From a virus (lineage: Duplodnaviria > Heunggongvirae > Uroviricota > Caudoviricetes), in the IMG/VR virus record IMGVR_UViG_3300046820_000635: DNA of 28,687 nt, one strand, 5' to 3'. Below are positions 2,757-22,150 of the stretch, in pieces. The first letter of the stretch is position 1. Each line of letters starts with the position of its first letter. A program made the translations under genes and the position numbers. The notes below the pieces were generated by a model, which was not told where the DNA came from, made no database searches, and saw only the letters and a list, made by a program, of their open reading frames with translations.

Positions 2757-3670
2757 CTTATATCTACAAACTTCGATAGATCTACACTAACGGGACTACA
2801 AGATGAGCTGTATAACAGTATCTCTTTAGCAGACTTTGCAGCCTTTTTACCCTGCTCGTCTGTTGATCTTCGTCCAGCTGTATAGGTAACATCATAGTAT
2901 TCTATTTCAAGCTGTGCTTTGTTTTTAGTATAGAAATCGTCACCTGCATCTCTATTACAATAAAAAGCAATGTGACCGTTAGTGTCCGCTAACTTACAGA
3001 AATCGATAAGTTCAAGATGTTTGGTGTCATCAAAGCTCTGTCCATATTGAGTGAAGCTGTCACGATAAGGAGGATCCATAAAGTAAAATGCTCTGCCTTC
3101 TATTTGATCACAACAGTCTTTCCAGTTACCGCAGTGTATGTCTACCTTTTGAAGGAATACATTCCACTCCAATACATTATCCTTGTCGTAGCATTTGGTA
3201 GTTTGATTCAACAGACCACTTGGTGTAGCAAATCTGCCATTACTGGTTTGATTAACCTGCCAAATACCATTAAAGCCAGTCTTCATTAAAAAATACAGTG
3301 TTGCTGACTCTTCAGTGGGAGACCATTGAGTCCAGTTTGTTGTGTACTCTGTTCTTAACTGATAATAAAAGGCTTTTCTATCTGCTTTTACCATTGGTAG
3401 GTATTGTGATTCTAGGCTGTTCATCCTGTTCATAAAAGTCTGTACATCATTCTTGATTGCATGATAAACACCCACAATCTCGGGATTGATGTCATTCATA
3501 ACAAACTTTTTGATATTAGGATTATTCAAATACATATGAACCATCATAGCACCACCACCGAAGAATGGTTCTACAAATGTATCATAGCCTGTATAGGGTA
3601 TTCCGGGGCTGTTTTGATACTTTGGTATCATCTTGCTTTTGCCGCCTGCCCAAATGTAAAGTGGTTTCAT
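2753..3670 (-). CDS. DNA adenine methyltransferase, Dam/D12 class (specificity unknown)
   Basis: WAGGKSK, FVEPFFGGGA SAM-binding motif, NDIN, and catalytic DPPY. Confidence 0.92.
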   Translation of the reverse strand: MKPLYIWAGGKSKMIPKYQNSPGIPYTGYDTFVEPFFGGGAMMVHMYLNNPNIKKFVMNDINPEIVGVYHAIKNDVQTFMNRMNSLESQYLPMVKADRKAFYYQLRTEYTTNWTQWSPTEESATLYFLMKTGFNGIWQVNQTSNGRFATPSGLLNQTTKCYDKDNVLEWNVFLQKVDIHCGNWKDCCDQIEGRAFYFMDPPYRDSFTQYGQSFDDTKHLELIDFCKLADTNGHIAFYCNRDAGDDFYTKNKAQLEIEYYDVTYTAGRRSTDEQGKKAAKSAKEILLYSSSCSPVSVDLSKFVDIS

Positions 3671-6757: not shown

Positions 6758-7143
6758 TGGAATACGAAACAGGTAAGATTGACAAGGGCTGGGGATTTGA
6801 ACTGGCCTTTGCCAACAACGAAATGTACAGCGGCAAGCTATTGGTGTTTGAACGTGCGGGTGCAAAGACCAGTATGATGTTTCACAAGGAACGTTCTAAG
6901 ACTTGGTTCATTAACGAAGGTAAGTTTAAACTTACCTATATTGAGACAGTATCGGGTAAGGTATTAGAACATGTGCTTGAAGCAGGTGCAACAACTACTA
7001 TTTCTAAAATGAGTCCGCATCAAATAGAAGCACTGGAACCTAACTCAATCATCTTTGAAGTAGGCACAGGTGACGTTGGTAATACAGATCGTATTAGACT
7101 TGCACCTGGTGATACTCAAACGCAGACACTAGAGCAGCAATAA
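6757..7143 (+). CDS. Cupin-fold protein (mannose-6-phosphate-isomerase-like phage family)
   Basis: [17 protein letters not shown] pattern and a PHQIEALE second cupin motif; TAATG overlap with clpP. Confidence 0.7.
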
Positions 7144-8305
7144 GATCCTCGATCATTCCATCATCGTGTAACGGAGTAGGTACTAAACGTAACCGCTCCG
7201 TTCCCACATCAACTGTTGGAAAGTTTATCGCTTGGCAATAAATGTTATGTTCGTTCAATAGTGTATCGCTAATAGCCTTACACTTTTTAGCATCTCCTAC
7301 AAGCACTGGAACAATATGAGTAGTAGAACAATTCATTACGTGAATTCCATTCTTCTCTAATCTATGCTTTAACTTTCGAGCACGTTCTTGATGTTTCTCT
7401 CGTAGCTCGTTATGCTCTTTTAGATATTTGACAGCAGCAAGGGCGCCTGCACAGGTTACAGGGCTCATACTTGTTGTAAAAATGAATCCAGCAGCAACAC
7501 TGCGGATAGCATCTACAATATCTTTATCGGCAGCAATATAGCCACCTTGGACTCCGAAAGCTTTGCCTAGGGTACCATTGACTATGTCGACCCTATCTTG
7601 TAAGCCTAGCTCTTCTAGCTTACCACCGCCATGTTCTCCGTAGAGTCCTACTGCATGTACTTCGTCAATGTAGGTCATTGCTCCATACTTATCTGCTAGA
7701 TCGCATATCTCTTTGATGTGTCCTACATCACCGTCCATACTGTATACACTTTCAAAAACAATACACGGTACCTTGTTACACAGTTGAGCAGCTTTCAAAC
7801 AGTCTTCTAAGTTATCCATGTCGTTGTGTCTGAATACTTGTTTGCTTGCACGACTGTGACTCATACCAACAATTAAACTATTATGATTCTTACTGTCACT
7901 GATAAACTCAATATCTGGAATAATTTTAGCCAGTGAAATCAAAGTCCATTCATTCGCAACATAAGCACTGCTAAACAATAGAGAACCGCTCTTGCCATGC
8001 AACTGTGCAAGTTCGTATTCTAGGGCAACATGATAATGACTGGTACCTGCAATGTTACGTGTGCCACCTGATCCCGCCCCAGTCATGTCTAGGGCAGTAT
8101 GCATAGCATCTAGAACTACTTTGTTTTGGCCCATGCCTAGATAATCGTTTGAACACCAGTTTGTAATGTTCTTGATAGCGTAAGGCCCGTACCAAATGGC
8201 CTGAGGAAACTTACCATTTTCACGCAGAATATCGTTAAACACACGATATTTGCCTGTGTCTTTTAGATTTTTGATTAGGTCTGTAAAGGGTTTCTTGTTG
8301 ATCAT
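7094..8305 (-). CDS. hemA: 5-aminolevulinate synthase (PLP-dependent, Shemin/C4 pathway), 403 aa
   Basis: [51 protein letters not shown] (PLP lysine). Start re-called at ATG 8305. Confidence 0.92.
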
Positions 8306-8313
8306 AGTACGCA

Positions 8314-8329
8314 TATTTAAGCATAAATA
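8314..8329. promoter_or_regulatory. Back-to-back divergent TAAATA boxes (minus 8319-8314 for hemA; plus 8324-8329 for the 8349 operon)
   Basis: Sequence tatttaAGCAtaaata lies between divergent genes. Confidence 0.7.
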
Positions 8330-8348
8330 TTCAATCGGAGATTTTATT

Positions 8349-8753
8349 ATGGATATTGTACAGCTAGATGTACCGCTTTTTATTAGGCTTTTAGAACTAG
8401 CCCGCGAAGACATTAAACAAGATGCAGATATACACGATCTTGCGCAGAGAGTTATTGAGCTCAGCAAGAATGGTCCTGTAGACATGGCCAGCTACGATGA
8501 TCTAGTAGGATTTATGAACAAGCAGGGTAAGTCATCAATGAAAGATGAAGATTTTTATAATGATGATATTCGTAGATTCCGACAGATTGTTGATCTAGCA
8601 GACAAAGGTGAATACACCGAATACACAAATACTCCTAAAGAAGAGTATGCAGGTATTGAAAGTGTAACTACAGCAGCCGGTGGCGGCCCAAACGAGCCTA
8701 AACATGTAGATGATATTAGAGGCAGCAGTTTTAGAATACACGGGAGAAACTAA
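8349..8753 (+). CDS. Conserved phage hypothetical protein ([21 protein letters not shown]...), 134 aa
   Basis: GGAG SD at 8337-8340; start re-called at ATG 8349 so that it does not overlap hemA. Confidence 0.8.
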
Positions 8754-14141: not shown

Positions 14142-14166
14142 AAAAAGCCCCTTTCGGGGCTTTTTT
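14142..14166. terminator. Bidirectional intrinsic terminator
   Basis: AAAAAGCCCC-TTTC-GGGGCTTTTT between convergent transcription units. Confidence 0.92.
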
Positions 14167-14854
14167 ATGACTTGAACAAGTACTTCTTATGTAAATGTAA
14201 TCTTGCTTGATTGTACTGAACAGCAGTGATAACTAACGCTGCGGCCCAAGGTACTACAGCAGCAGCCCAAGATGCTAGTCCTGCCCACCAAGCAACTAAC
14301 AGGGGTTCTTTCATTAACATTAAGAACGCAACAGCAAATAATACAAACGATCCAACAAACACAGTATCTGGCCAACGTTGTAAAATCTTGCTGACTAATG
14401 TAGCACCAAACAGGATGATTGGTACACTGATCAATAGACCGGCAATGATTAGTACAAAGTTTCCATTAGCGGCAGCGGCAATACCTAGTGCGTTATCGAT
14501 CCCCATAACAGCATCAGCAACAACAATAGTACCTATAGCACCCCAGAACGTATCTTTGGCTTCGATATTATGTTCGCCTGAATCAAACACAAGTTTCCAA
14601 CCAATCCACACAAGTGCTGCCGCACCAATAGCACGTAGGCCCGGAATCATTAACAAGTAGGTTAGCGCCGCAACTGATACAAAGCGTATAGCAATGGCAC
14701 CAAAGGTACCCCAGAAGATTGCCTTCTTACGTAAGTGATCCGGTAGTTTATTAGCCGCCATTCCGATAACAAGAGCATTATCACCAGCTAATACAATGTC
14801 TATCAATATGATAGCAAGAAATGCCCAGAGGGCTTGAATCGAAAATAACTCCAT
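14165..14854 (-). CDS. terC: TerC/Alx-family (YjbE-like) membrane protein, probable Mn2+ homeostasis (229 aa)
   Basis: IILIDIVLAGDNALVI and ADAVMGIDNALGIAAAA (the paired TerC metal motifs), multiple TM helices; AAGGAG SD at 14866-14861. Start re-called at ATG 14854. Confidence 0.92.
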   Translation of the reverse strand: MELFSIQALWAFLAIILIDIVLAGDNALVIGMAANKLPDHLRKKAIFWGTFGAIAIRFVSVAALTYLLMIPGLRAIGAAALVWIGWKLVFDSGEHNIEAKDTFWGAIGTIVVADAVMGIDNALGIAAAANGNFVLIIAGLLISVPIILFGATLVSKILQRWPDTVFVGSFVLFAVAFLMLMKEPLLVAWWAGLASWAAAVVPWAAALVITAVQYNQARLHLHKKYLFKS

Positions 14855-14870
14855 GAGAGTCTCCTTAAGA

Positions 14871-14976
14871 ACTGGTCTTGCCAAGGACCTATTCCCCTGA
14901 TACACCGGACACTGTTTGCTCAATGTCGTGTTGACGATGTAAAAGACCTACAGTGTAGGCAGGCTACTCCCCATAA
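14871..14976 (-). ncRNA. yybP-ykoY manganese riboswitch
   Basis: Minus strand reads UAUGGGGAGUAGC-[CCUAC/GUAGG]-UACAUCG-UCAACACG-[ACAUUG/CAGUGU]-CCGGUGUA-...-UUGGCAAGACCA. This contains the GGGGAGUAGC, CGUCAA and GCAAGACC hallmarks and sits directly upstream of a TerC gene. Confidence 0.92.
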
Positions 14977-14978
14977 AA

Positions 14979-14984
14979 TATTTA
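14979..14984 (-). promoter_or_regulatory. TAAATA box immediately 5' of the riboswitch
   Basis: Overlaps the TAA of the HAD gene; the aptamer starts a few nt downstream. Confidence 0.7.
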
Positions 14985-15566
14985 GTTGGTTGTTATGATG
15001 TCGTAAATCTCTTTCCAGTTCTTTGCGATATTATAGTTACAGGCATGATGCATATTATGTCCGTGCTCTACTAGAATACTGCGTAGACCCAATCGATGTC
15101 CTAAATCGGCATTCTCAGGCTTATCCTCAATCCAAAAAAGTCCGCTATCTTCGTACGGTTCGAGGGCATCGTCTTTGTCTGCACCTGTATCCAAACATAT
15201 AACACTTTCGATAGCATTGCCGAACAGTTTGCGTAGATTCATTTTACGTAGTTTGCCTGCATTTACATCTAGGCTAAGACTGGTAATCACACGGAACTGA
15301 TATCCATATTCTTCATGTAGTCGTTTGACATAGTGAACACTATCTCTCAATGCAGGTAAGAAACCAATGGCAGCTGATTCATTAAAAATCTTAACTAGCT
15401 TTTTAATATCGTCTTTGGTAGTACCAAGATAGTGATGATGTAGGCTGTATTGATCTTTGCCCTCATCGTTGAAAATATGACCGTGTTCTAGCATCCATAC
15501 ACGGAATGCCCATTCCCAGTCTAAGAGTACACCGTCTGCGTCTGTGAGTATAAGTTTGTTGCTCAT
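14982..15566 (-). CDS. HAD-superfamily phosphatase, 5'(3')-deoxyribonucleotidase-like
   Basis: Motif I TDADGVLLDW, motif II VITS, motif IV WIEDKPEN. Confidence 0.85.
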   Translation of the reverse strand: MSNKLILTDADGVLLDWEWAFRVWMLEHGHIFNDEGKDQYSLHHHYLGTTKDDIKKLVKIFNESAAIGFLPALRDSVHYVKRLHEEYGYQFRVITSLSLDVNAGKLRKMNLRKLFGNAIESVICLDTGADKDDALEPYEDSGLFWIEDKPENADLGHRLGLRSILVEHGHNMHHACNYNIAKNWKEIYDIITTN

Positions 15567-15793
15567 GTAAAAGCCTTGTAAAGTCCAAATAATCCTATCA
15601 GCAACGAAACAATATTAACTACGGCTTGCGGTTTATTAGATACCCGTACAGCCCATGTTAAAAACAATATAGTACCGATAGCAAATACAACAATATTCCA
15701 TGGGTATGTTGCAGGACCTATGCTGTTAAAGATGTGGCCCAAAATAATGAAACCTGCACCTAGCCACTGTAGTGCGTCGTTAAGTTTTGTCAT
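15563..15793 (-). CDS. Small 3-TM membrane protein (76 aa)
   Basis: Three hydrophobic segments; ATGA coupling to the HAD gene. Confidence 0.75.
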   Translation of the reverse strand: MTKLNDALQWLGAGFIILGHIFNSIGPATYPWNIVVFAIGTILFLTWAVRVSNKPQAVVNIVSLLIGLFGLYKAFT

Positions 15794-15801
15794 AGTTGCT
15801 T

Positions 15802-15830
15802 ATTGTAACATAGATCAAATAAGTTGTAAA
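15802..15830 (-). promoter_or_regulatory. sigma70 promoter TTTACA-17-TACAAT
   Basis: -35 at 15830-15825, -10 at 15807-15802; ATG 8 nt downstream. Confidence 0.7.
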
Positions 15831-15832
15831 TA
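15827..15832 (+). promoter_or_regulatory. TAAATA box 4 nt before the desaturase ATG
   Basis: TAAATA-cttg-ATG, with no SD. Confidence 0.65.
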
Positions 15833-15836
15833 CTTG

Positions 15837-16541
15837 ATGAATACAATATTAGCAACTCTAGTAATGACGCACATTACTATTATCTGCGTGACCCTGTTTT
15901 TACATAGATCACAAACACATAAAGGTGTGACCTTTCACCCAATAGTCAATCACTTTTTTAGATTATGGTTATGGCTCACAACAGGTATGGTTACCAAACA
16001 ATGGGTAGCAATACATCGTAAGCATCATAGGTACAGTGATAATCCCGGTGATCCTCACAGTCCTAGCGTCTACGGAATATTTAGAGTCCTGTTCAAAGGG
16101 GCAGGTTTGTATCACGCTGCCAGCAAAGACACTGAGATGATAAAACAGTACGGAGTAGGTACTCCGGACGATTGGCTAGAGCGCCGAGTTTATACTCCAC
16201 ATAGTCGGTTAGGGATCATAATCATGTTGATCATAGACCTTGTTCTTTTTGGCCCGATAGGTTTAATAGTGTGGGGTATACAAATGTTATGGATACCCTT
16301 TTGGGCAGCAGGAGTAATAAATGGAGTCGGACACTGGACAGGTTATATTAATGGTAATTCAAAAGATAATAGTCGCAATATTAGTCCTATTGGTATTATT
16401 ATTGGTGGCGAAGAACTTCATAACAATCATCACTTAGATCCTGCAAGTCCTAAGTTAAGCAGACGTTGGTTTGAGTTTGACATTGGCTGGTTCTATATTA
16501 AACTTCTAGAACGATTTAAGTTAGCAACTATTCGACCATAA
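15837..16541 (+). CDS. Membrane fatty-acid (acyl-CoA delta-9-like) desaturase, 234 aa
   Basis: Three His boxes HRSQTH, HRKHH and HNNHH, plus GEELHNNHH and WFEFDIGW. Start re-called at ATG 15837. Confidence 0.92.
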   Translation: MNTILATLVMTHITIICVTLFLHRSQTHKGVTFHPIVNHFFRLWLWLTTGMVTKQWVAIHRKHHRYSDNPGDPHSPSVYGIFRVLFKGAGLYHAASKDTEMIKQYGVGTPDDWLERRVYTPHSRLGIIIMLIIDLVLFGPIGLIVWGIQMLWIPFWAAGVINGVGHWTGYINGNSKDNSRNISPIGIIIGGEELHNNHHLDPASPKLSRRWFEFDIGWFYIKLLERFKLATIRP

Positions 16542-18134: not shown

Positions 18135-18140
18135 TATTTA
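18135..18140 (-). promoter_or_regulatory. TAAATA box for the small-protein/GNAT operon
   Basis: Intergenic and oriented toward ORF 18089. Confidence 0.65.
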
Positions 18141-18224: not shown

Positions 18225-18230
18225 TAAATA
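18225..18230 (+). promoter_or_regulatory. TAAATA box heading the plus-strand virion block
   Basis: 21 nt upstream of ATG 18252. Confidence 0.65.
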
Positions 18231-22132: not shown

Positions 22133-22150
22133 TTAACTACCCAGTTAAAT

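Follow-up and report, generated by a model that had tools for sequence, protein, structure and literature searches.

Can a phage carry an RNA sensor for Mn2+ of its own, and run it from its own transcription signals? This question is raised by a 28,687-nucleotide stretch of the IMG/VR virus record IMGVR_UViG_3300046820_000635 (Caudoviricetes), called the window below, in which an earlier reading of the sequence alone (hereafter the original prediction) had recognised a complete yybP-ykoY aptamer, the RNA element of Mn2+ riboswitches, upstream of a gene for a TerC-family membrane protein. The reading that we favour, to which we assign a probability of about 0.75 as a joint claim, is that a large freshwater phage carries a complete Mn2+ riboswitch-TerC cassette that was captured from a host, placed behind a phage promoter and operates as a translational ON switch; its ligand, switching direction, transcription start, timing and benefit are the parts that we infer. 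The TAAATA box, the aptamer, the Shine-Dalgarno (SD) sequence and the TerC open reading frame (ORF) were all found on the minus strand, in the places first proposed:

14984-14979, minus strand: TAAATA box, putative gp55-type late promoter core, read from the sequence, 6 nt 5' of GGGG
14973-14873, minus strand: yybP-ykoY-type aptamer with a four-way junction, from sequence, covariation and a covariance model built on phage leaders only
14872-14852, minus strand: expression platform read from the sequence, made of a linker, the SD AAGGAG (14866-14861), ACUCUC (14860-14855) and the AUG (14854-14852)
14854 (ATG) to 14165 (stop), minus strand: TerC-family membrane protein of the YjbE subfamily, 229 aa, from Pfam, NCBIfam and phrog_7180

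The identity of the gene was borne out by protein profiles. Its product matched Pfam TerC (PF03741) with 136.9 bits versus 27.8 (E = 7.8e-40) over profile positions 2-177 of 178, NCBIfam TIGR03717 (R_switched_YjbE) with 192.1 bits versus a cut-off of 134.8 over positions 2-176 of 176, and phrog_7180. A program-listed TTG start at 14923 was discarded: it falls inside the aptamer, and every homologue starts at an ATG-GA(A/G) equivalent to 14854. TerC-family proteins have been described as Mn2+ exporters or as metalation factors for exported enzymes that require Mn2+ (PMC12096827, PMC13598126; E. coli annotation).

The aptamer begins where TAAATA and six further bases give way to GGGGAGUAGCC from 14972, and it closes with GGCAAGACCA, ending at 14873. 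Its parts, all read from the sequence, are as follows:

14973-14971 with 14875-14873, minus strand: P1.1, UGG with CCA
14972-14964, minus strand: 5' part of L1, GGGGAGUAG
14964-14962 with 14882-14880, minus strand: P1.2, GCC with GGC
14959-14955 with 14951-14947, minus strand: P2 hairpin
14945-14938 with 14904-14897, minus strand: P3.1
14937-14928 and 14907-14905, minus strand: L3, UCGUCAACAC plus CGG, in which CGUCAACAC is 14936-14928
14927-14921 with 14914-14908, minus strand: P3.2
14896-14894 with 14887-14885, minus strand: P4 hairpin, GGG-AAUAGG-UCC, GGG pairing with UCC
14879-14876, minus strand: 3' part of L1, AAGA, lying within GGCAAGACC (14882-14874)

In the published definition of the class, P1 stacks on P2 and P3 on P4 around a four-way junction, L1 and L3 form the Mg2+ and Mn2+ pockets, the P1.1 switch helix of L. 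lactis is nucleated by two G:C pairs (G5 and G6 with C95 and C96), and mutation of an L3 adenine (A41U in L. lactis) abolishes Mn2+ binding (PMC11087558). P1.1, P1.2, P2, P3.1, P3.2 and P4 are all present in the window, which gives the four-way junction; the L1 and L3 loops correspond at the level of sequence only; and the leader lies directly upstream of an R_switched_YjbE TerC gene, the gene context of the class.

The original prediction had called for a survey of related phages, and this survey proved productive. With the TerC protein as query, 80 viral loci were obtained from IMG/VR (61-98% identity, contigs up to 357 kb), 61 of which carry the aptamer leader, in 44 distinct sequences. Within these 44 leaders GGGGAGUA, CGUCA and AGAC form invariant columns. 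When the six-helix structure was stated explicitly, 86.7% of cells were paired and changes on both sides were seen in 21 of the 30 pairs; the covariation score was 0.398, compared to at most 0.104 for registers slid by 1-3 columns, and none of 500 shuffles reached the observed value. Individual helices were 93-97% paired with compensatory changes, and an unguided RNAalifold run recovered P1.1, P1.2, P2, P3.1 and P3.2; of the 25 pairs that it returned, 17 showed compensatory changes. P1.2 illustrates this behaviour, since most leaders read GUA-AC...GU-GAGACC, three read GUA-GU...AC-GAGACC and those of the window type read GUA-GCC...GGC-AAGACC. The nucleus of P1.1, formed by the GG of GGGGAG and the CC of GACC, is G:C in 43/44 and 44/44 leaders, and in the window it is extended by a single further pair (U:A). 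A longer P1.1, in which the bases between TAAATA and GGGG would pair with those following GACC, was rejected: 59% of cells pair, the outer five pairs look random and only the two GG:CC pairs are invariant. Because the 44 variants combine compensatory changes with invariant L1 and L3 while TerC itself diverges to ~70% identity, we conclude from these alignments that the leader is under structural purifying selection within phages rather than drifting.

A covariance model built from the phage leaders only (R1), which scores the window leader at 60.4 bits, provided a reciprocal test. It found the leaders of E. coli mntP (37.9 bits, E 2.6e-7, aligned over all 98 positions) and alx (20.8 bits, E 0.001-0.008), in both cases on the right strand and just upstream of the gene. 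In these alignments the motifs of L1, L3 and P1.1 (GGGGAGUA, CGUCA..ACG/CCGG and GAGACC) are in register, and for mntP so are GGGGAGUAGCC, the positions of P2, P3 and P4, and GGCGAGACCA. mntP and alx are experimentally studied Mn2+ riboswitches, and mntP is described as acting on translation (PMC9603457, PMC11647493). Other Burkholderiales leaders and that of a TerC gene in Paenibacillus were matched by R1 as well (24-38 bits), and it gave 63-76 bits on leaders of freshwater Polynucleobacter, the source of the closest cellular TerC genes.

The search with the Rfam yybP-ykoY model (RF00080), which the original prediction had proposed as a check, came out negative: the leader scored 13.3 bits against a threshold of 45 (E = 0.09), with its 3' half misaligned. 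No Rfam 15 family matched the window at gathering score. When 14780-15080 was scanned permissively against all 4227 families, RF00080 was the best cis-regulatory match of the leader, yet below threshold, and the terC RNA motif (RF03067) gave no match up to E = 10. Twenty bacterial TerC loci likewise contained nothing at Rfam gathering score. On the Polynucleobacter TerC leaders RF00080 scored 26-32 bits (E 4e-5 to 2e-3), which is significant and below the 45-bit cut-off, and in 14 control genomes it matched in five and cleared the cut-off in two. Of the 177 positions of the model, the last ~80 represent a GC-rich stem followed by a U-run, a terminator-type platform that the window leader lacks. 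As RF00080 also misses the Polynucleobacter leaders and clears its cut-off in only two of the five matching controls, the Rfam result is not decisive; the failure lies in an insensitive model and not in an absent element. On the strength of the covariation, the shared motifs and the detection of the validated mntP and alx leaders by R1, the leader is a genuine yybP-ykoY-class aptamer as judged from sequence, although it scores below the Rfam threshold, and the pairing of a complete aptamer with a TerC gene was upheld.

Such an aptamer could still be a passenger that arrived with TerC and persists by inertia, TerC being expressed constitutively from phage promoters. Several viral TerC lineages have indeed lost the leader and kept the gene, namely loci L026, L027 and L030 and a 13-member clade, which suggests that regulation is dispensable for some phages, and the TerC genes of six isolated GenBank phages gave no R1 aptamer match. 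The compensatory substitutions in 21/30 pairs and the invariant loops, maintained while TerC identity falls to ~70%, speak against inertia, and we regard this explanation as very improbable. In L026, L027 and L030 (upstream of position 3001), TerC is 88-89% identical and the deleted aptamer has left a 3' remnant, ...GACAAAACTGTGATACCATAAC..., behind TAAATA.

How would the aptamer control TerC? Only 20 nt separate it from the AUG and no terminator lies between them, so control must act on translation or on the fate of the mRNA. In the free fold, the 5' side of the aptamer (L1/P1.2, GGGAGU...CCU) pairs with AGG...ACUCUC and buries the SD up to the AUG; when the aptamer helices are imposed, the SD is unpaired. 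The mean unpaired probability of the ribosome binding site (RBS) in the window was 0.24 in the free fold; it rose to 0.46 when the aptamer was imposed and to 0.41 when the head was shuffled, and none of 20 shuffles was as low as the native sequence. The corresponding means for 36 leaders of the majority form (type B, described below) were 0.34, 0.61 and 0.49. In these leaders the occluder is the 3' strand of P1.1, which pairs and co-varies with the start-codon region, as in CCAUAA/UUAUGG (20 leaders), CCAUUUUAA/UUAAAAUGG, CUGUAAU/AUUAUGG and CCAUUUU/GAAAUGG. These folding results point to a translational ON switch, as in mntP.

The original prediction had also proposed an ON switch, and in this respect folding is consistent with it, since the SD is freed when the aptamer is imposed; the pairing through which this would occur is another than the one it named. 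It had placed the switch in an anti-SD contact between UCCUUG (14887-14882) and UAAGGA (14867-14862). Such a contact is possible, and most Polynucleobacter leaders have kept it, with UUCUU/AAGAG as a single co-varying variant, but it is missing from the free minimum-free-energy structure of the window and is broken in L084 and L085. We therefore set it aside as the main switch and retain it as a possible secondary contact only.

The aptamer may be real and sense a signal besides or instead of Mn2+, such as alkaline pH or another divalent metal, or it may act through mRNA stability or Rho. The window TerC is closer to the alx-type TerC than to MntP, the majority of phage leaders share a GUAAC...GUGAGACC P1.2 pair with alx, and alx is reported to respond to alkaline pH as well as to Mn2+ (PMC9603457) and mntP to be under Rho-dependent control too (PMC9603457, PMC11647493). 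Against this stand the metal-pocket motifs of L1 and L3, which are invariant in the 44 phage leaders, the short distance to the AUG, which leaves no room for a terminator, and the position of the SD inside the alternative pairing. We consider this explanation, whether as an additional or as a different signal or mode of action, distinctly unlikely.

Transcription signals were examined next to the aptamer and throughout the window. The TAAATA box does lie a few nucleotides 5' of the aptamer, as had been noticed, and it is nearly invariant in the 44 leaders, 5-9 nt upstream of GGGG, irrespective of the gene found upstream; a divergent neighbouring gene has its own, mirrored copy (TATTTA). TAAATA is the top-enriched hexamer in the 60 nt upstream of window genes when TerC is excluded, occurring in 11 of 40 regions (12-fold), with 11 sense occurrences versus 1 antisense. 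When the window was pooled with 30 related loci, it was second only to AAGGAG among enriched upstream hexamers. No conserved -35 element accompanied the TAAATA sites in their window contexts, and the genes behind them are structural and non-structural alike. The hexamer represents 6 of the 8 positions of the T4 late promoter TATAAATA, and the full TATAAATA occurs at only 2 window sites. A late sigma factor of the gp55 family (phrog_234, E 6e-23 to 3e-27) is encoded in 3/5 large related contigs, including a complete 356,865-bp genome; the 28.7-kb window has no such gene, and its phage is only a relative of those genomes (53% identity in the ligase).

T4 late transcripts start 6-7 nt downstream of the box. 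By this spacing, the TerC transcript would start at about 14973-14972, and a start near GGGG fits because the extension of P1.1 upstream of GG shows no covariation. TAAATA can reasonably be read as a gp55-type late promoter. Of the phage late-type promoter first proposed, the phage-type signal thus stands as a genome-wide, orientation-specific upstream element with a gp55-type sigma in the lineage, and its late timing is an attribution by analogy with T4.

Several further features were seen around this signal. The three gp55-family genes lie in ~215-357-kb genomes (G003:C1:279134-279451, G004:C1:176378-176806 and G006:C1:179287-179685; L172-L174), in open frames of ~300 aa compared to 185 aa for T4 gp55, and may thus carry an extra domain. 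In the upstream regions of many window genes (for example at 18225, 20516, 21064, 21496, 22602 and 25007, and on the minus strand at 18135, 5151 and 3696), the distance between TAAATA and the called start is sometimes only 5-25 nt. ACACAC/CACACA is a second strongly enriched, sense-specific upstream hexamer (6-9-fold).

An alternative is that TAAATA is not the promoter of TerC, which would then be transcribed by read-through, the hexamer being a processing or regulatory site or an AT-rich stop context. The candidate source for such a transcript is the following:

15830-15802, minus strand: sigma-70-like promoter match, TTTACA, 17 nt, TACAAT with an upstream TG, 10/12 matches in a consensus scan

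This match stands ahead of the two genes that precede TerC, all three genes being co-oriented with short gaps. The TAA of TAAATA (14984-14979) doubles as the stop codon of the upstream NT5C-like ORF (14982-15566), and another TAAATA, at 22146, abuts a terminator hairpin; both would suit a role other than initiation. The box nevertheless keeps its distance of 5-9 nt from GGGG when the upstream gene is different or divergent, and is mirrored for a divergent gene. Its sense-specific enrichment and the gp55-type sigma genes of the lineage also argue for a promoter. Sigma-70-like matches are no commoner in the region than in shuffles, which makes the one at 15830-15802 weak; it may be a second, read-through source of TerC transcript. 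Overall, we find it unlikely that TAAATA is not the TerC promoter.

The setting of the cassette was then considered. As the original prediction had assumed, the window is phage DNA: its genes encode an ATP-dependent ligase, a DNA methyltransferase, a ClpP-type head maturation protease, virion structural proteins, an exonuclease and an HNH endonuclease, and it shares the ligase (53% identity) and a virion protein with a 356,865-bp viral genome rated complete by CheckV. The closest contig, that of L001, whose TerC is 98% identical, measures 60 kb and is rated 17% complete. A ~350-kb phage belonging to this broad group is the probable source of the window.

Host DNA chimerically joined to a phage contig, or a host genomic island, would also place a host-like cassette here, and it is true that the window is metagenomic and that TerC and its leader have close relatives in Polynucleobacter. 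However, the contig proved intact: in the probable source run, 14150-16013 is matched exactly by a unitig of 1,864 nt, which thereby bridges both junctions, and another study supplied a run with a ~91%-identical contig that spans the start of TerC, its leader and the gene upstream (14783-15934). Phage genes also flank the cassette in the 61 viral contigs where it recurs, among them genomes of 191-357 kb; it sits in a TAAATA context instead of the host TATAGAAT, and its TerC is only 63-67% identical to the host genes. A chimera or host island is thus extremely improbable.

Where did the cassette come from? The closest cellular TerC proteins, at 63-67% identity, are those of freshwater Polynucleobacter, and each of these genes has a leader that is nearly superimposable on that of the window, with the same four-way junction and P4 (GGGGAAU(A/G)GGUCCUUGGCAAGACCA) included, and is likewise missed at the Rfam threshold; both parts of the cassette thus have their nearest relative in the same place. 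The Polynucleobacter leader differs by a sigma-70-type TATAGAAT box where the phage has TAAATA, by a longer 5' lead-in and by the sequence between aptamer and start codon. In a maximum-likelihood tree, rooted by midpoint only, TerC of phages and of Polynucleobacter group together in a clade (100/100) that a long branch separates from other bacteria, and the 60 viral rows occupy one side of this clade (89/55). These findings agree with one old capture of the cassette from a Polynucleobacter-like betaproteobacterial host followed by diversification in phages, as far as sequence comparison can tell; the direction from host to phage is suggested by the promoter swap and by the wide bacterial distribution of the cassette.

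Three types of leader were distinguished among the phages. The host-like type A, seen in the window, L001, L063 and L065, has P4; type B, to which most leaders belong, has the linker ACAAAG instead; in type C, P4 is accompanied by an upstream ORF (uORF) of 17-19 codons. Type A occurs on the basal viral branches (L065, L063), and the window and L001 are nested among type B (99/94), so that P4 must have been lost more than once or leaders have recombined. In type C (L033-L038, L049, L055, L057 and L059; for example L033:147-343), leaders are 60-90 nt longer and the uORF starts at an AUGG sequestered by the 3' strand of P1.1 (CCAUAAUAU/AUAUUAUGG) and ends at or next to the SD of TerC. This arrangement suggests that the riboswitch controls a uORF translationally coupled to TerC.

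The idea that the P4-less form is specific to phages was abandoned, as Burkholderiaceae genomes carry similar linker-only aptamers. These aptamers, yybP-ykoY-like and scoring 55-69 bits with R1, occur in L176:1500-1700, L177 and L178 (Burkholderiaceae G101, G050 and G128). A linker of 7-14 nt stands at the P4 position, the gene downstream encodes an outer-membrane efflux protein (OEP/TolC-type), and a hairpin, CCAUUUAC...UAAAUGG, covers the start of a tiny ORF. Locus L081 (CAZUUI010000291.1, 2.7 kb), from a metagenome-assembled genome binned as Chitinophagaceae, has TAAATA, a type-B leader (R1 90.9 bits) and a TerC 85% identical to that of the window; it is probably a mis-binned phage fragment rather than a Chitinophagaceae gene.

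Several observations weigh against a Mn2+-responsive translational switch in the window. The imposed aptamer fold is worth -24.1 kcal/mol, compared to -44.0 for the free fold; tertiary, docking and metal energies are outside the model, and given this nearest-neighbour gap the aptamer must win kinetically or through docking energy, so that the modelled switch is probably kinetic. P1.1 has only ~3 bp in the window and P3.1 contains a 2x2 internal mismatch. The occluding pairing varies among leader types and Polynucleobacter homologues, and the platform of the window is represented by only four related sequences. No related phage leader reached the RF00080 gathering score, the 20 viral loci scanned giving only a tRNA. 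Some relatives keep TerC without an aptamer, as seen above, and the pH response of the alx homologue (PMC9603457) implies that Mn2+ need not be the sole signal.

With these points taken into account, we propose the following scheme for the Mn2+ riboswitch-TerC cassette. RNA driven by TAAATA would start almost exactly at the 5' edge of the aptamer. When Mn2+ is lacking, GGGAGU...CCU and neighbouring segments would base-pair with AGG...ACUCUC, hiding the SD and the stretch from there to the AUG. Binding of Mn2+ between L1 and L3 would lock the strands into the docked four-way junction and the GG:CC of P1.1, leaving the RBS free for TerC synthesis. TerC may then export Mn2+ or load it onto exported proteins, and might in this way keep the metal balance of the infected cell compatible with phage production. 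How the phage would gain from this is a matter of speculation.

Neither the class of RNA nor the gene family is new, and their combination is known as well; the novelty lies in the virus as carrier, in the exchange of promoter and in the way the cassette has diversified among phages. The cassette resembles E. coli mntP in its aptamer class and in the predicted response, in which a membrane protein handling Mn2+ is switched on at the level of translation, with no terminator. It differs in the gene (MntP versus a YjbE-type TerC), in the promoter (host-regulated versus TAAATA) and in the distance between aptamer and AUG, which is ~20 nt in the phage and ~115 nt in mntP. E. coli alx has in common a yybP-ykoY aptamer ahead of a TerC-family gene; in contrast to the phage leaders, its leader is long and P4 carries a long insert, and the subfamily of the phage TerC is YjbE, not Alx.

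Riboswitches have been called 'a rare feature in phages', and those described sense glutamine (PMC9004378). The glnA-type glutamine riboswitches of cyanophages and pelagiphages are comparable in that a host-type riboswitch on a T4-like aquatic phage is presumed to control a phage-borne gene; they differ by their aptamer class, amino-acid ligand and targets, and here the riboswitch moved together with its cognate gene. TerC membrane proteins of phrog_7180 are also known from isolated phages (Pseudomonas Otagovirus, Acinetobacter, Bacillus Siminovitchvirus and Rhizobium), in which they are at most 39% identical to the window protein and form part of vWA-TerC-TerD/TerE clusters in which 3-78 nt precede the gene. 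When the cassette was compared with GenBank phages at the DNA level, no match was obtained, and the literature searched contained no report of a phage-borne riboswitch sensing Mn2+ or another metal.

Downstream of TerC, the flanking genes are convergent and one more element was read directly from the sequence:

14160-14142, minus strand: intrinsic-terminator-like hairpin, GCCCC-GAAA-GGGGC followed by UUUUU, 3' of TerC

The consensus terminator scan did not list this hairpin, though it is visible in the sequence. An A-run lies 5' of it, and it could serve for bidirectional termination between the convergent genes. Two further enzymes are encoded in the vicinity of the cassette. The gene at 7094-8485 (minus strand) encodes 5-aminolevulinate synthase, a haem-precursor enzyme (TIGR01821, 572.7 bits versus 338.6), with no PHROG match. 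The one at 15720-16541 (plus strand), two genes from TerC and divergent from the TerC operon, encodes a fatty-acid desaturase of the DesA family (NF049918, 413.2 bits versus 400), a di-iron enzyme.

Beyond this locus, we put forward tentatively, at slightly under even odds, the joint statement that giant phages of fresh water, which probably infect Polynucleobacter, sense metal with an RNA of their own, namely a captured Mn2+ riboswitch with a late promoter starting at the aptamer and at least three platform designs (the host-like four-way junction, a P4-less three-way junction and a uORF-coupled form). The analysis documents a blind spot of the current RF00080 model. The cassette may serve as a host-linkage marker tying uncultured ~350-kb freshwater phages to Polynucleobacter-like hosts, and its four-way, P4-less and uORF-coupled variants offer a natural series of aptamers and platforms for work on riboswitch mechanism. 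A cassette of sensor plus effector would have moved from host to virus, been structurally selected in dozens of phage lineages and been re-plumbed to phage transcription signals. If the joint statement above holds, no metal-ion riboswitch would have been shown at work in a virus before this one, and the implication would be that phage production in humic and freshwater systems is limited by intracellular Mn2+, an ion able to mis-metallate iron enzymes like those encoded nearby by the phage itself. The cassette would thus provide a concrete, testable case of a virus reading the metal status of the infected cell directly.

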